Shown one piece after another: positions 4,547 to 53,946 of a stretch of DNA of 64,000 nt. The stretch is from the IMG/VR virus record IMGVR_UViG_3300034980_000290; one strand, written 5' to 3'. Position 1 is the stretch's first letter. The number at the start of each line of letters is the position of its first letter. The notes below the pieces were generated by a model. The model saw nothing but the letters and a program-made list of their open reading frames with translations, did not search any database and was not told where the DNA came from. Source of the DNA: a virus. Lineage: Duplodnaviria; Heunggongvirae; Uroviricota; Caudoviricetes. The position numbers and the translations under genes were made by a program.

Positions 4547-6291
4547 TGAGCGGCGAGTTCAAGCCACCCCTGCCCCGGATACGGCGGCAAATCGGGGAGC
4601 TGGGAAGCCGACGAGATCCAAAGGAAACCGGACTGCGGGTGTACATCCCGCTCCCGGTGTACCAGAAGATGTCGGCGTTGACCATGAGCGCGGAGAGCGA
4701 AACCAGCGCCATGGGATTCGTGCACCTGGAAAAGGACAGCGACATCACGACGCTGGGCCAGGAGGTGTGGGTAGACGAGCTGGTGTTTGTCAAGAACAAG
4801 TCATCGGCCGCATCCACCGAGCTTGACCAGGACGATCTGGCCCAGGTGATGATGGCCAAGATGAAAGAGGGGCGCGACTTGATGCACATGCGCCTCTGGT
4901 TCCATACGCACTACAACTTCGACGTGTTCTGGAGCCCCACCGACCGCAACGCCAGCAAGAACACGCTGGAGAACAGCCGGTGGACCCTCAGCATTGTGAT
5001 GAACCAGAGGCATGAGCTCCGCGCTTGTGTGGACGTGTACCGCCCTGAGCATCACTGGTACGACGAGGTGCCCATCTACCTTGTGTTGGATTGCCCGACC
5101 CAGAAGTGGGACAGGTGGGCGAAGCAGGCACACAAGCGGATCAACTCCGAACGCATGATCGCCCTTGAGGACTGGCGAAGTGCTGGCGGTGACGAGCAGG
5201 GCCAGGAGTTGAGCCCCGAGTTCATCGAGCGCATTCGCAAGGAAGGCGGGATCGTCACCAGGGAAGACGCAGGCAAGAACAAGGCCGAGGTGGTTGAGGG
5301 TGACCCCGATGACCACAACGTGATTCATCACGTGTGCTCGTGCAACAAGGTGCTGGAGGTTCCGGCATCCTGCAAGAAGTTCAAGTGCCCCGAGTGTGAA
5401 CAACATTGGGACTTGAATTACAAGACCCAGGACGGGAAGGGTTCCAAGGGGCAGGCGGATGATCCAGAGCAGCAACTGACGGCTGACAGGCTGTACGTTG
5501 ATGCCTTGCAGATGCAGACGCACTTGAACGAGGAAACCGACCCCAAGGCGCTGAACGGCTTCCCGTGCAAGGAACTCTTCATGCCTGCTGTTGATGAGGA
5601 GTTTGTCGGTGGCGCTTGCTTCCCGTATGTCGAGGACGTCATCGACAACGTGGAGTACATCACGGCGGACAGGTTCGTGGAGCTGGAACTGGTGTTCCTT
5701 GGCACCCATGGACACATGAGGGTCTACGCCAACGGGACTCAATACTACTGCACCGATGACCACCCCACCCTCTCGACGGTGTTCAGTGCATCATTTGCAT
5801 CGAGCGTGGAAACCGACCAGTGGCCGAACCGATTCATCCCGGTGCGTGACGACAACGCGACCGTGGTGGCGTTTGGCGAACGAGCCACGAGCATCTGGTA
5901 CGACCTTTGGCTCAAGACTTACGTGTCCACCTACCACGATCACTCCAAGGCGGAGGATCCCACCGGGGACATCGAATACTTCGATGACATGAGCGAGCGC
6001 AGGGTCAAGAACGTGATCAGCGCCATGCTCATCGAGCGGCAGGAAGGTGGCTCCCGTGCGAACCAGCCATACCAGCCCAACCTACCCAGCCCGCCCGCGC
6101 CAAGGAGATTGGTGCAGAGTGGGGCCGGGAAGGCCCGTGTCGGGCAACCGTATGGGCAGGGTGCCTTGCGCTGGGAAGAATGGTGTGCCCAACGACAGGA
6201 CAATCCTGTCAAGGTCAGGCGCAGGGATGGCGACGGCAGCCTGAAGAACGTCAGGCTTCGGTTGGATGCGACCAACCTGGATCCGGCATAG
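4546..6291 (+). CDS. JAB/JAMM (MPN+) metalloprotease-domain protein with C-terminal zinc-ribbon region
   Basis: 581 aa; exact JAMM motif HTHYNFDVFWSPTD (HxHx7Sx2D); Cys cluster CSCN...CKKFKCPECEQHW; start overlaps upstream stop (ATGA). Confidence 0.6.
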   Translation: MSGEFKPPLPRIRRQIGELGSRRDPKETGLRVYIPLPVYQKMSALTMSAESETSAMGFVHLEKDSDITTLGQEVWVDELVFVKNKSSAASTELDQDDLAQVMMAKMKEGRDLMHMRLWFHTHYNFDVFWSPTDRNASKNTLENSRWTLSIVMNQRHELRACVDVYRPEHHWYDEVPIYLVLDCPTQKWDRWAKQAHKRINSERMIALEDWRSAGGDEQGQELSPEFIERIRKEGGIVTREDAGKNKAEVVEGDPDDHNVIHHVCSCNKVLEVPASCKKFKCPECEQHWDLNYKTQDGKGSKGQADDPEQQLTADRLYVDALQMQTHLNEETDPKALNGFPCKELFMPAVDEEFVGGACFPYVEDVIDNVEYITADRFVELELVFLGTHGHMRVYANGTQYYCTDDHPTLSTVFSASFASSVETDQWPNRFIPVRDDNATVVAFGERATSIWYDLWLKTYVSTYHDHSKAEDPTGDIEYFDDMSERRVKNVISAMLIERQEGGSRANQPYQPNLPSPPAPRRLVQSGAGKARVGQPYGQGALRWEEWCAQRQDNPVKVRRRDGDGSLKNVRLRLDATNLDPA

Positions 6292-6357
6292 AACATTAGG
6301 TCATGAAGCCCCGTGCGCTACCATGGTGTGCGGGGTAAGGTGCCCAAGGAGCAAGCC

Positions 6358-7107
6358 ATGCAAGACACGGGTGAACAGTTCAAGCGCCAAGCTGAGTTCA
6401 TCCCGCGTAGTACCTGGGAAGGCGTGACTGTTCACGTTGTCGGGTGCGGCGGGATTGGATCAGTGGCGGCGCTGGGACTGGCCAAGATCGGAGCCAGCAG
6501 GATCATCCTGTATGACGATGACACCATCGAGCTCCACAACGTGCCCAACCAGATGCTGACCGCCAACGGGGATGCCATGGGACAGCCCAAGGTGGCAGAC
6601 CTGGGCGGGATCCTGCTCGACTTTGGCGGCGAGCACATCGACGTCATCGCCGAGAACCGGCGCGTGACCACCGAAAACCCGCTGCGGATCGAGGATAGGG
6701 AGGGCCTTCACCTTGTCCTGTGCGGCCCTGACAACATGGAGACCCGCAAGGAGGTCTTCGAGTTCTGCTGCGCCCGCGACGATGTGGTGGGGTTTCTGGA
6801 TGGCCGCATGGCCAGTCGGTTCTTCACGCTGCACGTGGTGGACACGAACGACGAAGCTGAAGCCAAGGAGTACCTGGACGCCTTCTACAGCACTGAGGAG
6901 GCTGAAGAACTGCCGTGCAGCGACCGGGCCGTCTTCCACACCAACATGGTCCTTGCGGCCATGATCTGTGAACAAGCGCGGCGCATCCTCATGCACGCGC
7001 AGGAGGCTTTGGGCACCATTGACCCGGAACAGGTTTTCCGCGAAACGCCAGCGGTGAATACGAAGGTGATGTTCGACCTTACGAACCTCACCCTCATGGT
7101 TGACTGA
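6358..7107 (+). CDS. ThiF/MoeB-family E1-like adenylyltransferase
   Basis: Rossmann motif VVGCGGIGS, YDDDTIELHNVPNQ (D-D-V-SNL-RQ-like), LCGPDNMETR (DCTDNxxTR motif); ATG 6358 with aaggag RBS; ORF track start 6313 is GTG. Confidence 0.65.
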   Translation: MQDTGEQFKRQAEFIPRSTWEGVTVHVVGCGGIGSVAALGLAKIGASRIILYDDDTIELHNVPNQMLTANGDAMGQPKVADLGGILLDFGGEHIDVIAENRRVTTENPLRIEDREGLHLVLCGPDNMETRKEVFEFCCARDDVVGFLDGRMASRFFTLHVVDTNDEAEAKEYLDAFYSTEEAEELPCSDRAVFHTNMVLAAMICEQARRILMHAQEALGTIDPEQVFRETPAVNTKVMFDLTNLTLMVD

Positions 7108-10179: not shown

Positions 10180-10322
10180 CGATATGTATGAGAATGCGCC
10201 CGGGGCCGTATAACTGTGGTGCGCGGCGGGGGGCACGGTGCCCGGCACTCCAAGGCCGGTAACATCACGCCCGCCCGCTTACCTTCCCCCCGGCGGCACG
10301 GTGTCGTCGGGGGACCAATCAA

Positions 10323-24375: not shown

Positions 24376-24589
24376 CAGACAAACAAAGACAGCGTGTGAC
24401 TCCTACGGAGGTGAGGATTTGCGCCTTGGATGGGCGTACGTTCTCACCTCCATCTTAGCCACCTTTGGTCTAGAGGTGAATTCGTTAGCCAGAAAAGTTC
24501 GTGTCTTATCTAGATATCCAGACTGAGAGACTGAGAGAGACTGAGAGACTCTCGAACAATCCGAAAAACGTCTGTCTTGTCTGGGCTGG

Positions 24590-25365
24590 GAGAGCTGCGG
24601 CATTTTGCCGCAGCAGTGCGGCATTCTGCCGCACCCTACATCTTGTGGTGCGGCATTCTGCCACACCAGTGCGGCATTTTGCCGCGGCACGTATGGCACG
24701 GGATTTGTTTCGGCACGGGATTTGTTTCGGCACGGGATTTGTTTCGGCACGGCACGTGCCATGGCACGGGATTTGTTTCGGCACGGCACGTGCCATGGCA
24801 CGGCATGTGCTACGCGCGGGTGGTGCTAAAGAGAAACGGCATAATCCGGGTGTCCACTTTTGAGGACACGGGTGTCCACTTTTGGGGAATGGCACAAGTG
24901 CCTGCCACGGCGGCACTTATGGCATGGCACGTAGGAATTGAGGGTATTGAGTGTCCTCTTTTGAGGACACCCGGGTTTGTATGCAACGTCCGTGCCACAA
25001 GCGGCACAAAGTATTTTTCTGGCATAAGCGTATGGCATATATAGACTTATGGCATGGCACGTATGGTCCGTCCGTCCGTCCGTCCATCTGGCACGGCCGT
25101 TGCTCTATGATGGGTGTCGGTGGCACAAAGCCAGGGCGCAAGGCCCGTCGACCCCGAATAGGGTTTACAGTTTACGTCCGCACCATATGGCGCGGACATG
25201 CATGCAAGTAGCAGGCACGGATCGCACGCACACGCCATCGCCAACCGGGGAACCGGGACCACTCGCCATGGCATGCCACTCGGGTTCCGGTACTACTTGC
25301 ATGCATGTCCGTGCCGTACGGTGTGGGCATTTCAACGCAACACGCAAACGATAGGAGACACGCAA
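24590..25365. repeat. iteron/palindrome array (candidate replication origin or operator cluster)
   Basis: gcggcattYtgccgc inverted repeat x4 (24597-24685); 17-mer ggcacgggatttgtttc x4 (24695-24779); gtgtccacttttgaggacac palindromes (24848-24972); ttatggcatggcacgta x2; (gtcc)5 microsatellite near 25066-25085; pervasive GGCAC/GTGCC half-sites. Confidence 0.6.
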
Positions 25366-25366
25366 C

Positions 25367-26044
25367 ATGACACGCAAAAAGAACACGGACAAGGCGGCCC
25401 CGGTGGTCGAAGCGGCGGCCCCGGTGGTCGAAGCGGCGGCCCCGGAAGCGGCGGCACCCACGGCACCCACGGCGGCCCCGGTGGCGGCCCCGGTGGACGC
25501 GGCCCCCACGGTCCGCCCCATCACGTGGGACGATGACGCGGCCCCGCCCACCATGGCGGACCTTCGGACGGCGGCCAGTGCCGTCCGCACGGGTTCGGCG
25601 GGCTGGTGGTACATGCACGCGCCGGACGGCAAGTTCGGCAACGGTGGCAAGCGGTACACCCACCGTCTGGCCATCGTGGACGGCATCGGCGATGCCCTTC
25701 CGGACGGTACGCGCCCCATCAACGGCGTGCGCTTCGTCGGGTTGACCTTCGACGCGGACGGCACGGTTGACCCGGCCGGGTGCGCTTCGTGGGTGCCCTC
25801 GACACGCGACCCGGCCCATGCGCCCATGGTCAAGGCGGACGGTCGCACGGTGGCGGGTTTGCCCTCCACGGCGGGCAACGGTGGCCCCGCCCCGCAGTGC
25901 GCGGACACCCGGGGCGCGCGCATCACGCTGCACCCCAACGTGGACGCGGACGGCACCCCGACCATGGTGGTGTCCGGTGCCAAGGGGGGCGCGTACAGTC
26001 TCTCCGGCATCGTGGACGCGGACGGCACCCCGCTGGCACTGTGA
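25367..26044 (+). CDS. Pro/Ala-rich protein with W-YMHAP-FG-GG-RY motif (paralog of 12161..12688)
   Basis: cassette ataggagacacgcaacATG; 21-nt in-frame tandem repeat gcggccccggtggtcgaagcg x2; GWWYMHAPDGKFGNGGKRYTHRLAIVDG. Confidence 0.55.
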   Translation: MTRKKNTDKAAPVVEAAAPVVEAAAPEAAAPTAPTAAPVAAPVDAAPTVRPITWDDDAAPPTMADLRTAASAVRTGSAGWWYMHAPDGKFGNGGKRYTHRLAIVDGIGDALPDGTRPINGVRFVGLTFDADGTVDPAGCASWVPSTRDPAHAPMVKADGRTVAGLPSTAGNGGPAPQCADTRGARITLHPNVDADGTPTMVVSGAKGGAYSLSGIVDADGTPLAL

Positions 26045-26614
26045 AGGCGGTAGCGGCGGCCCTGCTTCTGGCATGGGCCGCCGCCCTCATCGGGGCCGGG
26101 GCCGCCATGGCCCGTGCCATGGTGGCCGTGGCACGTGACCCCGACCCTGACACGGACGGCGCCCCGTAAGGGGTGTGCAATCCTGCCACACCCCCACCTG
26201 TAGGGGGTGTGGCATCCTGCCACGGCACGGCGGCGGCACGGCACACCACAACATATGGTGTGTAAAGTTTGGTTTACCTACGACATTTTGTACCCCCCCC
26301 GGGGGTGCTTGCCGAGAGCGGCCAAGCTCATGACATTGAAGCCTCAAGCATCGAGAACCCGTTCGTGAGAGGTATGGTAGTGAACAAACCCCATCGGTGT
26401 TACTCGAAGAGATGACTGGTTACAGAGGTCATCTCAACCCGCCAGACCGGCAACAGACCAGAACAAACCCGAAAGGGCACATCGGCACCCAAAAACTCGT
26501 ACTTCGTAGCAGCGGCCAGCCACCGCACTCCAATCATGGCACAGGCGGCTTCGCCTCCCTGAACGCTGGTACGTTGGATAGGGGCCGCGTTTCAAAAATC
26601 TCGTAGGGGGTAAG

Positions 26615-31741: not shown

Positions 31742-32305
31742 ATGATCGAGTCAGCATTCGCATGGATCACAGACTTTGTGATGTGGCTGGCGAGCTTAGT
31801 CCCTCGCTGGCGATTCACTCGATCTACGCATGAGGGGGTGGCGTATCTGCTCGGCAAGTACGTGCGCCACTGGAAGGCAGGGGCACATTTCTACTGGCCG
31901 CCCATTACTGACTTTGACGAGATTCCCGTGGTCCGGCAGACCATGGACTTGCCAGAGCAGACCATCACCACGAAAGACCTCAAAACGGTTTTGGCCAGTG
32001 CGGTCATCACATACCGCATCTCGGATGTCGTTGTCGCGTTATCTCAGCAATGGGACTATGAAGACACCATCAGAGACCTTTCACAAGCCGCTCTCCGTGA
32101 CTACGTGTGTGAGCGTGAGTTCGAAGCCATCGCAACCCAGAGACGCCACTCTGGCAAACAGATGGCCACAATGGCCAATGATGAACTCAAAGAGTGGGGT
32201 GTTGAGGTAATCAACATGAGACTCCAAGAGTTCGCGATTACCAAAGCCGTCAGCCTCCACGGACAAGGTGGAGGCTACGTGCCTGATGATGAGGAAGAAG
32301 AATGA
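31742..32305 (+). CDS. SPFH (band 7/stomatin/prohibitin) domain protein
   Basis: N-terminal TM, then VVRQTMDLPEQTITTKDLKTV...VITYRISD...LSQAALRDYVCEREFEAIATQR typical of SPFH. Confidence 0.45.
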   Translation: MIESAFAWITDFVMWLASLVPRWRFTRSTHEGVAYLLGKYVRHWKAGAHFYWPPITDFDEIPVVRQTMDLPEQTITTKDLKTVLASAVITYRISDVVVALSQQWDYEDTIRDLSQAALRDYVCEREFEAIATQRRHSGKQMATMANDELKEWGVEVINMRLQEFAITKAVSLHGQGGGYVPDDEEEE

Positions 32306-33198
32306 TTCGTACGCTTTGTGTCATGCTGTCTCTCATGTGTGGGCTTGGTGCGGGCCAAACCCCGCCTCCGGCGCCCCTGCCCAATCTGAGCGGCCTCACA
32401 GTGCCCACTAACCCACCAGCGGCCACACCGGCCGACATGGCCCACCTGGTCCTTCCGACGCCGACCAGCACGTCCCACACCTTCCAGGCTTTCAATGCGA
32501 CGTATGCCGCTCTGGCAGACATCCCGCTCGGCAGTCTGGCAGGCCCCACCAAGTGGACCAACACCGGATACCCGCCTCAACTGCATGCGCCAGGTCACCC
32601 GAACGCCGGACAGCCGGTCTATGCCGTTCCTGCGAAATGGATGCCTTCCATCGGCCGAGGGTACTTCGGAAGGGCGTGGACGGGTAACATCCGTGATCTT
32701 TCAACCGGGTTGCTGGTTTCTGCCAGCCTTCCGCGCCGAATCGGCTTCACAATCTCAAACTCGATGGGACAGAACATTCTCTTCGGGTTGCCGTCAAAGT
32801 GGTCAGACTTCGATCAGGTTCACATGTACTACGCCCCGATTGACATGAACACGCTGCCGTCGCGTAATGTGACGATAACGGAGCTCATGAATCCATTCAG
32901 GGGTGATCAGCGCCTTGAGATGCTGACATACAACCCGACCACCTTCGGATGGTGGGCGAAGACATGGCCCATGATGAAGTTCGAGACCACCAGGGCTCAA
33001 TGGTCCCGCGTCCCTGACTTCATGGGCCGTCAGACCAAACACATGGACATGTGGGTTGAACTGAGCGATGCGGGTTACAACGCTCTCAAGGGCAAGTCCA
33101 TGGCATTTCAGCCGTTTGTGGTGTATGGCACCAACGCAACATGGCTCGGGGCTGCTCTGGGTGTCCCATTTTCGATCTACGTACCAGAAGGGCAGTGA
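32302..33198 (+). CDS. secreted/lipoprotein-like protein
   Basis: signal peptide MIRTLCVMLSLMCGLGAGQ; Pro-rich after cleavage region. Confidence 0.45.
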   Translation: MIRTLCVMLSLMCGLGAGQTPPPAPLPNLSGLTVPTNPPAATPADMAHLVLPTPTSTSHTFQAFNATYAALADIPLGSLAGPTKWTNTGYPPQLHAPGHPNAGQPVYAVPAKWMPSIGRGYFGRAWTGNIRDLSTGLLVSASLPRRIGFTISNSMGQNILFGLPSKWSDFDQVHMYYAPIDMNTLPSRNVTITELMNPFRGDQRLEMLTYNPTTFGWWAKTWPMMKFETTRAQWSRVPDFMGRQTKHMDMWVELSDAGYNALKGKSMAFQPFVVYGTNATWLGAALGVPFSIYVPEGQ

Positions 33199-33497
33199 TG
33201 ATCAGCTTGGATCAACTTAGCTTCAGTATCATGGCGGTTTGTTCGGTCAGGTACGCCCTGGGCAAAGAAACCGTTGAAGTGAAGGATATCGCCGAAATCG
33301 TACTGGCCAACCTCCAATACCTGGAGGCAGACGATCTCGAGGGTATGATCCACGACATCTGCAACTCACCGCGCAGCCATGGCGCTGGTGAGATGACCTG
33401 GAAGGCTTTCTGCAAGCGGCTGTCGGAGCAGCTTGCCAGCCTTGACACGAACGGTTTTCGGCGGTGTGTCTCGAAACTGGCGGAGAGATGGGTCTGA
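33198..33497 (+). CDS. hypothetical protein upstream of sigma factor
   Basis: 99 aa; ATG overlaps upstream TGA. Confidence 0.4.
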   Translation: MISLDQLSFSIMAVCSVRYALGKETVEVKDIAEIVLANLQYLEADDLEGMIHDICNSPRSHGAGEMTWKAFCKRLSEQLASLDTNGFRRCVSKLAERWV

Positions 33498-33537
33498 AAA
33501 GCGTATAACTCCTTGTCAGGAAAAGGCCCGCCACCTG

Positions 33538-34527
33538 ATGGCCAAGAAAAGCACCAAGAAATCTGCAGAGCCAGAGGCAGTGCAACAAGCGTGGAAACGC
33601 TACAAGTCCAGAGGTGCAAAGGGGGGACGGCAAGAGGATAGGGACATCATTGTTGGCCAGTACATGCAGCTCGTTCGCTACGCTGCGAACCATGCCTGGA
33701 AGACGCTGCCGAACAACATTGATGTTGAAGACCTGGTATCCACTGGGTTTTTTGGTCTTTTGGACGCGATTGAGGGTTTTGACCTCTCGCGCAAGATCAA
33801 GTTCAAGACCTACTGCATGATGCGCATTCGTGGCGCCATGCTTGACGGCCTTCGCCGAGAGGATTGGATACCCCGCCTCGTTCGCTTGAAGGCCAGCCAG
33901 CACCGCAAAGCCGCCAAGAACGTGATGGCCCGCACTGGCTTACCGCCAACCCAAGAAGAAATGGCTGACGAGCTCGGTCTCACCGAGATTGAGTATGCCA
34001 AGTTCAAAAAGGCGATGGGGGTCATTCATGTCTACCCCCTGTCAGACAAGTTTGAGGCTGGCACCAGCGGCGAAGGCGTTGATAAGATTGATGTCATCGC
34101 CGATCCCAAGTCTGCTGAACCCATTGTTGAGCTTGAATCTGCTGATGCTGTAGTGCACATCATGCGGTGCTTGACAGCGCGTGAGAAGCGCATTGTGATG
34201 ATGTACTACTACATGGGCTTCACGATGAAGCAGATCTCGGAAGCCTTGGATCTCACTGAATCTCGCGTTTGCCAGATACACTCAGCCTTCATTGAGCGGT
34301 TGAGGTGCATGATTGAAAGAGACGGGCTTGACAATGCCGAAATACCGCAAGGGCGAAATGATGACGCGGTGGGGGTCTGTCGGGCTGTTTTGCGTGACCT
34401 CAAATGGCGTGGTGAAGAACGACGGCGATCTGGTAATGGGAAGAGGAATGGCCGCTTTACTGAAAAAGAAGTGGCCGCAATCCGCAACCCTGGCGGGAGA
34501 GAAGGCGACGGCGTGGTACAAGGCTGA
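33538..34527 (+). CDS. sigma-70 family RNA polymerase sigma factor (FliA/sigma-28-like group)
   Basis: region 2 DLVSTGFFGLLDAIEGFD...YCMMRIRGAMLDGLRR; region 4 HTH LTAREKRIVMMYYYMGFTMKQISEALDLTESRVCQIHSAFIERLR; C-terminal 70 aa low-complexity and overlapping next gene. Confidence 0.7.
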   Translation: MAKKSTKKSAEPEAVQQAWKRYKSRGAKGGRQEDRDIIVGQYMQLVRYAANHAWKTLPNNIDVEDLVSTGFFGLLDAIEGFDLSRKIKFKTYCMMRIRGAMLDGLRREDWIPRLVRLKASQHRKAAKNVMARTGLPPTQEEMADELGLTEIEYAKFKKAMGVIHVYPLSDKFEAGTSGEGVDKIDVIADPKSAEPIVELESADAVVHIMRCLTAREKRIVMMYYYMGFTMKQISEALDLTESRVCQIHSAFIERLRCMIERDGLDNAEIPQGRNDDAVGVCRAVLRDLKWRGEERRRSGNGKRNGRFTEKEVAAIRNPGGREGDGVVQG

Positions 34528-34828
34528 GAACAACAAAGCCTACAACCTCATCTACCTTCAGCACCCAGATCAGCTTGTCGGTCTGTTTCAGACCAAACTC
34601 CACTTCTCACACCGCGCCCGCTTCGATCTCATCTACTGGGGCCTGCACTACCTCAAGAAGTGGGCCACCGCTTACCCTGACAGCATTGCGTGCATCAACT
34701 TCCCTGGAGTTGGCCTCGGGGGCCTTTACCCCGATGAAGTGGCCCTTTTGCTCAGGGTGCTGCCCAAGAACGTGGAAGTCTGGTCTCGGGGTGAAAAAAG
34801 CGTAGAGAGCGTTATTCTGGGCGAGTAG
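34313..34828 (+). CDS. macro-domain (ADP-ribose binding/processing) protein
   Basis: VTSNGVVKNDGDLVMGRGMAALLKK (macro VNAAN..GGGV.GAI-like) and CINFPGVGLGGLYPDEVA (IAFPaIStGvyGyP-like); true start probably M at 34358; overlaps sigma ORF in different frame. Confidence 0.5.
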   Translation: MKETGLTMPKYRKGEMMTRWGSVGLFCVTSNGVVKNDGDLVMGRGMAALLKKKWPQSATLAGEKATAWYKAENNKAYNLIYLQHPDQLVGLFQTKLHFSHRARFDLIYWGLHYLKKWATAYPDSIACINFPGVGLGGLYPDEVALLLRVLPKNVEVWSRGEKSVESVILGE

Positions 34829-34844
34829 CGCAGATGGGCGTGTC

Positions 34845-34895
34845 TGGTGGCACGTGTGCCGTATAAGGGTGCAGGCACAAAACCAAAGGCACAAC
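34845..34895 (+). promoter_or_regulatory. conserved promoter-leader cassette (GCCGTATAAG variant)
   Basis: gtggcacgtgtGCCGTATAAGggtg. Confidence 0.4.
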
Positions 34896-35423
34896 ATGCA
34901 AAACCCTCGCGCAAAGTACAAGGAACTGGCCGATTTGGCCGAGATCCCCACCACAGGCGGCGTCATGCTCAAGATGGGCGTTGACGTTTGTCTCTCGCCC
35001 ACCTGCCCGAACGCGCCGAAAGAGCAGCCGGAAGCCGTCGAAGAGGAGTCCAAGTGGCGTCCCGAGCGCCGTGGGCTCTGTCGTGCTTGCTACGCGGCCA
35101 TGATTCGAGACAAGCCTGAAACCGGCCCTGAGAGCTTCATCCCCTTCGAGAACGAAGGCCGGTGCCTTCCTCGCAACTTCGGCGGCAACAAGCCCCCAAT
35201 CCGCAAGGCACGCACGCCTGTCACGCCAGCATGGATGCAGGTGGCCTTGGGCACTGCCGCAGCCGTCCCGGCCGAGATGGCGGCTCCGGCGCCCGCTCCG
35301 GCGCCCGCTCCGGCGCCCGCTCCGGCGCCCACGGTCCCGATCGACTTCAGCGGCGACGCGGCCGAGTCCACAGCGGGCGGGGATGACCTGGACCGGCTGT
35401 TGAACACCGAAGTGGGCGAGTAG
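34896..35423 (+). CDS. zinc-ribbon protein with (AP)7 linker
   Basis: CLSPTCPN...CRACY; 12-nt tandem repeat gctccggcgccc x4 at 35283-35330 encoding APAPAPAPAPAPAP. Confidence 0.5.
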   Translation: MQNPRAKYKELADLAEIPTTGGVMLKMGVDVCLSPTCPNAPKEQPEAVEEESKWRPERRGLCRACYAAMIRDKPETGPESFIPFENEGRCLPRNFGGNKPPIRKARTPVTPAWMQVALGTAAAVPAEMAAPAPAPAPAPAPAPAPTVPIDFSGDAAESTAGGDDLDRLLNTEVGE

Positions 35424-35426
35424 TAC

Positions 35427-36392
35427 ATGCCGACAAAGACAACCAAGAAAACCGCCAAGAAGGCGCGAAAGAAGCGTACGCCCAAGGTCAAGCACGACCC
35501 GGTGTACGATCGCAATCTCCTCAAGCAGCTCGTGAGAACGTGCTATGACCTTCAGGAGAAGAGGATGGCCCATGGGCAGCGCCAGAAGGCCCTTGCCCAC
35601 CGTGGAATGCCAGAGCTCAACGAAAGCGACACAGGCGCCTTCGCCGAAATCTTCGGCGGCTTCAAAGACGTTGAAAGGCTCATCGAGAAGCAGATCCATA
35701 AGGTGCTGAAGAGGTTCCCAATCTGGACCAAGTGGTTGGACGAAGTCACAGGTGTTGGCCCAATGATGGGCGGCATCATCGTGAGCAAGTTCGACCCCTA
35801 CGACGCACCAGCCCCTGAAGGCTACGGGGTTGAACACGCTGGTGCCTATGAAGGCAAGTACCTGTTCCGTGAGTGCATTGACAAGGAGAAGGACACCTGG
35901 AATGTTGAGGAGCGCGAGTGCATCATGCGCCAGCGCACCGTCAGCCAGTTTTGGGCGTACTCCGGACTCCACACCATCGAGGTCGATGACAAGGAGGGTG
36001 GCAGGAAGCGTGTGGCGGCGCGGCAGGTAGCTGGGAAGCAGGGCAACTACGAGACATGGCTCAGGGCCAAGCTGTTGGGTGTCCTGGGTGACATCATGAT
36101 CAAGGGAGGCAGCCCGTACAAGAGGTACTACGACGAATGCAAGAAGCGTCGTATAGCCATGGGCTGGGGCACGACCGACATGCACCGGCACAAGGACGCC
36201 AAGCGGCACATGATGAAGTGTTTCATCATGGACCTCTACGTGCAGTGGCGTACGGTGCTTGACCTTCCGGTCAGGGCACCGTACGCCCTTGCAAAGATGG
36301 GGTTGTCCCCGGCGCAAGCGTTCCATGTAGAGGAACACCCAGGGTGGAACAGAAAGGACGCCGCTGAGGCGGCAGCAGCAGCAAATGGATGA
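35427..36392 (+). CDS. basic protein with helix-hairpin-helix region resembling IS110-transposase C-terminal (Transposase_20-like) domain; no DEDD nuclease domain seen
   Basis: Lys-rich N-term; VTGVGPMMGGIIVSKFDPYD and QFWAYSGLHTIEVDDKEGGRK...GNYETWLRAKLLGVLGDIM...YKRYYDECKKRR pattern. Confidence 0.35.
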   Translation: MPTKTTKKTAKKARKKRTPKVKHDPVYDRNLLKQLVRTCYDLQEKRMAHGQRQKALAHRGMPELNESDTGAFAEIFGGFKDVERLIEKQIHKVLKRFPIWTKWLDEVTGVGPMMGGIIVSKFDPYDAPAPEGYGVEHAGAYEGKYLFRECIDKEKDTWNVEERECIMRQRTVSQFWAYSGLHTIEVDDKEGGRKRVAARQVAGKQGNYETWLRAKLLGVLGDIMIKGGSPYKRYYDECKKRRIAMGWGTTDMHRHKDAKRHMMKCFIMDLYVQWRTVLDLPVRAPYALAKMGLSPAQAFHVEEHPGWNRKDAAEAAAAANG

Positions 36393-36641: not shown

Positions 36642-37100
36642 TTGTGCTGGGAAGCGTTTAGTACCATGGAAGGCGTCTCACAAGAGATCCTACCCTTCGA
36701 AGGCTACACAGGCTATCGGCACTGGTCCAAGGATCTTGCCTCTGGCACCAGTGAGCTGGAGAGGATTTACGCAGCAGGCATTGCTGACTTGGCTTCCGTC
36801 AACGTCTTTGTGGACTTGGTAGGGGCCAGAGGGCTTTGGATCTATCTTATGTTCCCCCCGTCGAGGCTTAGGGACGACCAACAAGCCCAACTGATTGAAC
36901 ACGAGTACACCTCATGCACTATCAATGATGCAACGCAGGTGGCTTTGAACGCACTTGCAGGGGCCTACACGGCTGTGATTGGCAAAGCAACGCCTGCCGA
37001 CCTCCAAACACTGGAGCAACGGCAGGATGGCAACGCCCAAGAAACTGACGTGGCAGGATGCGGTGAGGTGGCTGAAGGCAGCCACGGAACATCTCCGTAG
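36642..37100 (+). CDS. hypothetical protein
   Basis: 152 aa; start uncertain. Confidence 0.3.
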   Translation: MCWEAFSTMEGVSQEILPFEGYTGYRHWSKDLASGTSELERIYAAGIADLASVNVFVDLVGARGLWIYLMFPPSRLRDDQQAQLIEHEYTSCTINDATQVALNALAGAYTAVIGKATPADLQTLEQRQDGNAQETDVAGCGEVAEGSHGTSP

Positions 37101-53869: not shown

Positions 53870-53946
53870 GTTCCCTTGGGAACCTCGACGAATCTGTCGT
53901 ATAACCCCGGGCCAGCATAACCACTGACCCGGGGTTACTACAAATC

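Follow-up and report, generated by a model that had tools for sequence, protein, structure and literature searches.

Organization of the sigma–macrodomain locus

The window analyzed here, a stretch of 64,000 nucleotides (nt) of the IMG/VR virus record IMGVR_UViG_3300034980_000290 (Caudoviricetes), is a tailed-phage genome segment whose genes lie almost all on the + strand. Searches of its proteins against PHROG identified terminase, portal, major head and tape-measure proteins. At 33538–34828, two + strand genes of this window overlap co-directionally. The upstream open reading frame (ORF), which extends from ATG 33538 to TGA 34525–34527 and encodes 329 amino acids (aa), consists of the core of a sigma factor of the FliA/WhiG (sigma-28) type with regions 2, 3 and 4 (33538..34311; aa 1–258) and of a tail of 71 codons and the TGA stop (34312..34527). 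The downstream gene (34334..34828) encodes a protein of 164 aa which homologue alignment, profile searches and predicted fold assign to stand-alone macrodomains resembling DarG and TARG1. The two genes share 194 nt (34334..34527), the sigma frame lying at −1 relative to the macro gene.

A preliminary description of this locus, made from the sequence alone, had noted an overlap of about 200 nt, a sigma frame remaining open to 34527 with an Arg/Gly-rich tail, and a macrodomain encoded in another frame over the same stretch. These features proved to be correctly recognized: the overlap counted from ATG 34334 is 194 nt, the tail contains 17% Arg and 17% Gly, and the macrodomain was found by both a profile search of PDB sequences and fold comparison.

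The sigma factor core and its expected end

Both Sigma70_r2 (aa 43–110, 57.6 bits) and Sigma70_r4 (aa 209–256, 51.4 bits) were detected above the Pfam gathering score. Region 3 scored 19.7 bits, which is below the cutoff of 25.3, and aligns throughout with the homologues. The NCBIfam subfamily model TIGR02479 (FliA_WhiG) matched with 211.1 bits (cutoff 189.6), aa 39–258 corresponding to profile positions 2–222 of 224. The end of regions 2 and 4 near 34310, as proposed in the preliminary description, was thus placed at aa 258 (nt 34311) by the FliA_WhiG match; the sigma homology stops there (nt about 34305–34311) and all homology is gone by about aa 258–265. The protein resembles FliA and WhiG factors in its regions and in passing the subfamily cutoff, and differs from them in being encoded by a phage, in its unique C-terminal tail and in the lack of a canonical TAAA-N15-GCCGATAA promoter in the window. 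A Pfam match of AdfA to region 4 (E 0.071) was rejected as weak and as reflecting helix-turn-helix similarity only.

We aligned 28 homologues with 41–50% identity, most of them from metagenome-assembled genomes of Planctomycetota. The phage sigma factor shows this degree of identity to Planctomycetota FliA proteins, contains all of the 60+ invariant columns and shares their Lys-rich N-terminus. The codon log-likelihood of its core (0.525) is typical for genes of the window. Its closest homologue (P0006) is surrounded by cellular genes. A scan of IMG/VR with the sigma alignment found relatives with at most 36% identity, none of which extended beyond query aa 269, and the IMG/VR scan with the sigma protein itself gave no match. 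A literature search for phage-encoded FliA in Planctomycetes yielded nothing relevant.

In all 28 aligned homologues, the C-terminus lies 13–17 aa past the invariant L255, and differences in length are confined to the N-terminus, whereas the sigma factor of the window continues for 74 aa. Since the homologues end in this way, the natural stop is expected near nt 34340–34350, which is essentially at the macro start codon. Among the best 120 of 2258 matches, query coverage was at most 80% for every match other than the protein itself.

The macro gene is the constrained frame in the overlap

The macro frame is shifted +1 relative to the sigma frame and is open over 34313–34828. As the alignment with its homologues begins at the second residue after ATG 34334, we assigned the gene to 34334–34828. 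The overlap would be 215 nt with TTG 34313 and 170 nt with ATG 34358 as start codons. The protein has four close homologues and belongs to a family of at least 186 members. Conservation of its residues was scored over 39 family members, and the overlap was found to encode the family-invariant G31, L33, G36, G38, A40 and P48 as well as the nearly invariant G7, N24 and G25. In the AF2 model of the protein (pLDDT 93.3), the first 64 residues reach 93–98 and are predicted to form integral strands and loops of the fold.

The GC content by codon position within the overlap also follows the macro frame (third-position GC 0.72, vs 0.48 in the sigma frame). In the overlap, homology-based constraint is seen in the macro frame only, and the sigma frame shows no coding signature of its own there.

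Owing to the overlap, the macro gene is handled incorrectly in public gene calls. The JGI call P0121 (34448–34828, 126 aa) starts at an internal Met and lacks N24 and the VMGRG loop; this truncated form is devoid of the first phosphate-binding loop. In the Logan gene calls (L005), no gene at all is present at the position of the macro gene.

Identity and predicted role of the macrodomain protein

The macro protein had no Pfam match at E ≤ 0.1 or at E ≤ 0.01, and no precomputed Pfam domain is assigned to any of the 120 best of the 186 family proteins. PHROG 335 ('phosphatase') matched it with E 1.6e-13. The NCBIfam DarG equivalog reached 22 bits against a cutoff of 250 (E 7.6e-5), covering only profile positions 25–130 of 338, and the PADLOC DarG profile matched over positions 26–129 of 329 (E 3.9e-7). 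When the 39-member family profile was compared with PDB sequences, the best matches were the DarG macrodomains of Mycobacterium tuberculosis (5M3I, E 1.4e-9) and Thermus aquaticus (5M31, E 1.4e-8), followed by human TARG1. Comparison of the predicted structure by Foldseek gave 118 PDB chains at E ≤ 0.001, and nearly all of those listed at the top were macrodomains. The best of them were T. aquaticus DarG (TaqDarG, 5M3E) and M. tuberculosis DarG (MtbDarG, 5M3I) with E 8.6e-9 and template modelling (TM) scores of 0.69 and 0.74, the TM scores of the top matches TaqDarG, MtbDarG and TARG1 ranging over 0.69–0.78. The model thus points to the three-layer alpha/beta/alpha macro fold.

The residues that matter for DarG function are retained. 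In TaqDarG, K80 is catalytic and N22 positions the substrate (Jankevicius et al. 2016, PMC5179494); the catalytic lysine corresponds to K84 of TARG1. K88 of the window protein, within FQTK, aligns with the FPTK motif of 5M31 and 5M3I and thus with K80, and N24 aligns with N22. The loop G125–G130 aligns with G117–G121 of TaqDarG. N24, T87 and K88 are nearly invariant across the 39 members. In the loop VMGxGxA, which aligns with VMGKG of DarG, G36 and G38 are invariant, and in FPGVGLGG, which aligns with GxGNGG of DarG, P124 is invariant and G125, G127 and G129 are nearly so. W83 of TaqDarG is replaced by F91 here, the family consensus being W. The family is divergent and unannotated, and it carries a 6-residue insertion before the first Gly loop. 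The protein was also considered as the DarG antitoxin of a DarTG system; unlike DarG, it has neither a C-terminal DarT-binding domain nor an adjacent DarT gene, and this assignment was rejected.

A further homologue is AdfM of phage PhiKZ (gp104), a stand-alone phage macrodomain of DarG type with about 160 aa which was shown to take ADP-ribose attached by DarT2 off DNA (Morgan et al. 2026, Cell Rep, PMC13309987). Profile alignment of the two proteins by hhalign gave a probability of 97.3% (E 2.6e-11, 130 columns). They share the Asn (N23 in AdfM, N24 here) and the (F/P)TK lysine motif, although identity is only 22% and the segment before the Gly loop reads NGVVKxDGxLVMG here and NVVGVMG in AdfM. 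In contrast to AdfM, the macro family of the window has no Pfam match and no phage-nucleus context, and the host of the phage is apparently a planctomycete. The preliminary description had suggested that the macrodomain might counter ADP-ribosylating host defences. This suggestion is supported by the predicted fold and the retained Lys and Asn, and it can be narrowed to the DarG/TARG1 type: the protein is most likely a stand-alone anti-DarT DNA ADP-ribosyl glycohydrolase. Phage anti-DarT macrodomains are an already known, recently established kind, to which the present protein probably adds one member.

Macro-family genes were observed in two further settings. A 240-kb metagenomic contig (L049) contains paralogous macro-family genes at 5001–5462 and 5915–6397 with one small gene between them. 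In Thermus thermophilus AP025596.1 (L048), a macro-family homologue lies in a prophage-like run of small co-directional genes including SSB (929894–940364), two genes downstream of a 252-aa sigma-like protein with a Sigma70_r3 match. This sigma-like protein is not detectably related to the sigma factor studied here, and the neighbourhood was dismissed as a coincidence.

The sigma tail and the length of the open frame

The sigma frame stays open for about 64–65 codons past the end of its relatives, and of the tail encoded by 34312–34527 only the first 10 or so residues may correspond to the short C-terminus of the relatives. When the 71-aa tail was compared by phmmer with 1.84 billion representative proteins, only the phage protein itself and one other (P0241) were retrieved; P0241 consists of tandem repeats, resembles the tail in composition, does not belong to the sigma factors and was rejected as a homologue. 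Orthologues sharing the long C-terminal extension, which the preliminary description had named as its refutation, were found neither among the 28 aligned sigma factors nor among these representatives. The AF2 pLDDT of the tail is about 40–52, compared with 80–96 over most of the sigma domains, and the tail is probably disordered according to this model. Read in the sigma frame, it has a codon score of −0.137, compared with 0.537 for the same overlap DNA in the macro frame; no real-frame window of the phage scored as low as the tail. All this makes the tail look like an unconserved by-product and not like a new functional overlap.

The length of the run-on was compared with a chance baseline derived from the −1 frame of 39 trusted genes of the window. 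In these, stops make up 4.2% of the −1-frame codons, and 6–9% of 65-codon windows are stop-free. Synonymous resampling of the macro protein with the codon usage of the phage left the sigma frame open in 10.7% of trials. Since such a frame is open by chance in 6–11% of cases, selection is not needed to explain its length.

Synteny with a relative phage

The only syntenic relative phage that we found is the 27-kb Logan contig ERR2752148 (L001). Its gene order is a Band_7 protein (73% aa identity to that of the window), a 102-aa protein (31%), the macro protein (44–48%), a 302-aa protein (57%) and an exonuclease-like protein (66%). The ATG of its macro gene overlaps the TGA of the 102-aa gene, which directly precedes it, and the sigma gene is absent. 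The homologue of the 102-aa gene in the window is a gene of 99 aa with function unassigned (33198..33497, + strand), which has no Pfam match and at the equivalent position of which Logan also calls a gene; the 102-aa protein matched 33207–33491 by tblastn (31% identity, E 5e-12). The homologues of the 102-aa gene and of the macro gene thus directly flank the sigma gene of the window. Because L001 has the macro gene without the sigma gene, the latter was either inserted in the lineage of the window or lost in that of L001.

This sigma gene was not found within 4 kb of the macro gene in any of the other macro-bearing viral loci. No match was obtained by blastn of 33400–34900 against 50,697 phage records or by the IMG/VR scan with the Band_7 protein. 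In JGI metagenome contigs, a search for the sigma–macro junction with two exact anchors and a variable gap gave 0 matches, so that even the source contig was missed, and the scan with the Band_7 alignment revealed two weak relatives only.

A second co-directional run-on overlap was observed in the window at 37027–37100 (74 nt), where it joins a gene of about 140–150 aa to the exonuclease-like gene; it measures 47 nt in L001 (4824–4870), and the tails past the homology are not conserved. Because this second overlap recurs at a conserved position, such run-ons are seemingly tolerated in the lineage.

The most probable origin of the overlap

The overlap is probably a 3′ run-on of an ordinary kind and specific to this lineage, in which an acquired sigma gene extends into a conserved anti-defence gene. 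A FliA gene of planctomycete type would have been inserted just before the macro gene, either lacking a functional stop or with a stop that was lost later. The homologous 3′ end of the sigma gene would thereby have landed within about 10 nt of the macro start, with no stop where its relatives terminate, and ribosomes would continue for 64 codons, in the frame −1 to the macro gene, before meeting a stop. The resulting Arg/Gly-rich tail would be a tolerated by-product, and translation of the macro gene would be initiated independently at ATG 34334, inside the sigma ORF. As for the products, the phage sigma factor may redirect the host RNA polymerase to phage promoters, and the macrodomain may strip ADP-ribose of the DarT type from phage DNA, as AdfM of PhiKZ does.

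Several observations weigh against this explanation, and they are considered here together with the alternatives. Two of them concern codon choice. Among 29 stop-free −1 windows, the overlap ranks first in sigma-frame codon score, with z = 2.5 against synonymous resamples, which could hint at some tuning to the sigma frame. Moreover, G occupies 50% of the third positions of macro codons in the overlap, but 24% in the remainder of the gene and 34% over the genome (binomial p = 0.008); this difference is weaker when the forced ATG and TGG codons are left out. The macro third positions in the overlap are also poor in T relative to the rest of the gene, and the aa composition of the tail is intermediate between real proteins and typical −1-frame translations. 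Functional dual coding, in which a basic tail of 60–70 aa is selected and the macro codons are tuned to keep it (the tail might, for example, contact DNA or RNA polymerase or modulate region 4), would account for these signals. We nevertheless regard it as improbable. Against 159 general windows, the sigma-frame signal is reduced to z = 1.9 (approximately the top 6%), and the codon tuning was not taken as evidence of selection as it is not robust in this comparison. The 10% of resamples open by chance, the lack of a tail homologue in any sigma factor, the low-confidence structure model and a codon score below that of every real-frame window speak against dual coding as well. The variant in which the region is young and already selected, so that the Arg/Gly/Glu-rich tail gives the FliA-type sigma factor a new property, also seems rather unlikely to us; if true, the tail might, for instance, add contacts to DNA or RNA polymerase or allow an escape from a host anti-sigma factor, with the synonymous sites of the macro gene tuned for it. 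No close relative with both genes was found, which also counts against the explanation preferred above.

The remaining observations of this kind concern the accuracy of the sequence. Over 4775 bp spanning the whole overlap, 34290–34360 included, the window is 100% identical to a Logan contig (SRR12149294), and the records of JGI, ENA and Logan all contain one and the same 329-aa product. Because of this identity across the overlap, an indel specific to one assembler is unlikely. The three assemblies may, however, share one sample, and their agreement is at the level of assembly, so that a consensus indel at the level of reads retains a small probability. An error of this sort would consist of one base missing in 34312–34358, after which the true sigma gene would continue in frame 3 as far as TGA 34314, 34329 or 34359; the sigma factor would then have 259–274 aa and the overlap at most about 28 nt. 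Stops indeed crowd the other frames at the end of the homology (TGA 34301 and 34310 in frame 2; TGA 34314, 34329, 34359 and 34362 in frame 3), and because they are so dense, one missing base would restore a sigma factor of normal length. Extensions of this kind were, moreover, treated as annotation or sequencing errors by Palleja, Harrington and Bork (2008, BMC Genomics 9:335, PMC2478687). In addition to the identity of the assemblies, the absence of homopolymers longer than 3 nt in 34300–34345 and the second run-on, conserved in position in an independently sequenced relative, argue against an error, which we consider unlikely.

The third alternative is recoding, either by a programmed +1 shift at 34313–34333, which would fuse the sigma factor to the macrodomain, or by a −1 shift, which would give a sigma factor of normal length in addition to the long one. 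The macro frame is open from 34313, so that a +1 shift beyond this point would produce an in-frame fusion, and the RNA at the junction folds slightly better than shuffled sequences (z = −1.9; 9 of 200 shuffles as good). This structural signal is marginal, and neither a slippery heptamer X XXY YYZ nor a prfB-like stop context is present in 34312–34358. The 120 best of the 186 macro-family proteins have 122–201 aa, with no precomputed Pfam domain (that of a sigma factor, for instance) in any of them, and no macrodomain occurs in the sigma homologues among the matches listed. Recoding is therefore highly improbable, and a sigma–macrodomain fusion made by +1 recoding is still less likely than a young dual-coding region.

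The choice between an indel and a genuine overlap, which the preliminary description had left undecided, can accordingly be rephrased. The overlap is real as assembled, and a biologically lost or absent stop fits best, giving a run-on specific to the lineage and probably not conserved dual coding.

Comparison with known overlapping genes

The 3′ extension of an upstream gene is a class of long co-directional overlaps described by Palleja et al. (2008). The present case shares its features: the upstream gene outlasts all its orthologues, its extension, which shows no homology, enters a well-supported downstream gene, and more than 60 nt are shared. It differs in that the cases described there were deemed annotation or sequencing errors, whereas here an independent assembly reproduces the sequence. 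A real missing stop is the likely cause here, possibly brought about by insertion of the sigma gene beside the start of the macro gene.

Overprinted phage genes provide another comparison. In the gene pairs A/B and D/E of phiX174 and Rz/Rz1 of lambda, both frames are conserved and functional. The present locus is similar to them in that two co-directional frames share about 200 nt in a phage, but only one of its frames shows conservation or a coding signature.

Promoter-like motifs

A recurrent motif, GCCGTATA, occurs six times on the + strand of the window and not at all on the − strand. Five of the six sites, and a near-match at 53894, lie in intergenic gaps 30–55 nt before an ATG. With up to two mismatches, there are 14 matches, compared with 7.2 ± 2.5 in shuffled sequences. 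In the form (G/C)(T/A)G(C/T)CGTATAA, the motif was observed on the + strand only, at 10203, 15636, 17818, 23519, 34856 and 53894. Several copies are accompanied by an AAGGAG-like Shine-Dalgarno sequence, and three are flanked by GGCAC..GTGCC inverted repeats. The motif resembles the −10 box TATAAT of sigma-70 promoters and the −10 box GCCGATAA of sigma-28 promoters plus one extra base, i.e. the recurrent phage motif (G)CCGTATAA differs from the sigma-28 −10 element by one inserted base. The phage sigma factor may recognize this motif. No full match to the canonical sigma-28 promoter TAAA-N15-GCCGATAA was found on either strand of the 64 kb, in which CCGATAA occurs once on the + strand and twice on the − strand.

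One copy, GGCAC-GT-GTGCC followed by CGTATAA (34849..34866, + strand), lies 21 nt past the macro stop. The next transcription unit probably starts here, its first gene likely beginning at ATG 34896, about 30 nt further on. Because of the position of this motif, the sigma and macro genes appear to close one transcription unit. No sigma-70-like promoter and no excess of terminators were found in 32800–35600.

Other features of the window

Besides the matches described above, the Pfam scan of the neighbouring genes detected only Band_7. The ORF 34896–35423, between the macro gene and a transposase-like gene, is not present in L001 and has no Pfam match; it contains a (Pro-Ala)n repeat at 35283–35330. 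A gene of 298 aa at 32302–33198 is likewise absent from L001. At 24695–24780, the 17-nt tandem repeat GGCACGGGATTTGTTTC is present in at least four copies within a 2.2-kb stretch of poor coding signal (24376–26614). This array is iteron-like and may represent an origin or bind a regulator. A Gly/Pro-rich repeat, GGCGGCCCCGG..., with a period of about 21 nt was found at 25393–25490. The ORF containing it (25355–26044) is very GC-rich, with a third-position GC of 0.88, and may be collagen-like.

Implications for phage gene overlaps and probable anti-defence genes

The findings do not overturn the current understanding. They would provide a clean case of a long co-directional overlap arising when an inserted gene without a stop meets a resident gene. 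They also document a phage carrying a sigma factor of the sigma-28 type which is nearest to FliA of Planctomycetota. The macrodomain protein brings to light a divergent DarG-like family missed by Pfam, with at least 186 members, many of them in phage or prophage-like contexts, and its probable anti-defence gene has been hidden in public annotations owing to the way in which gene callers handle the overlap.

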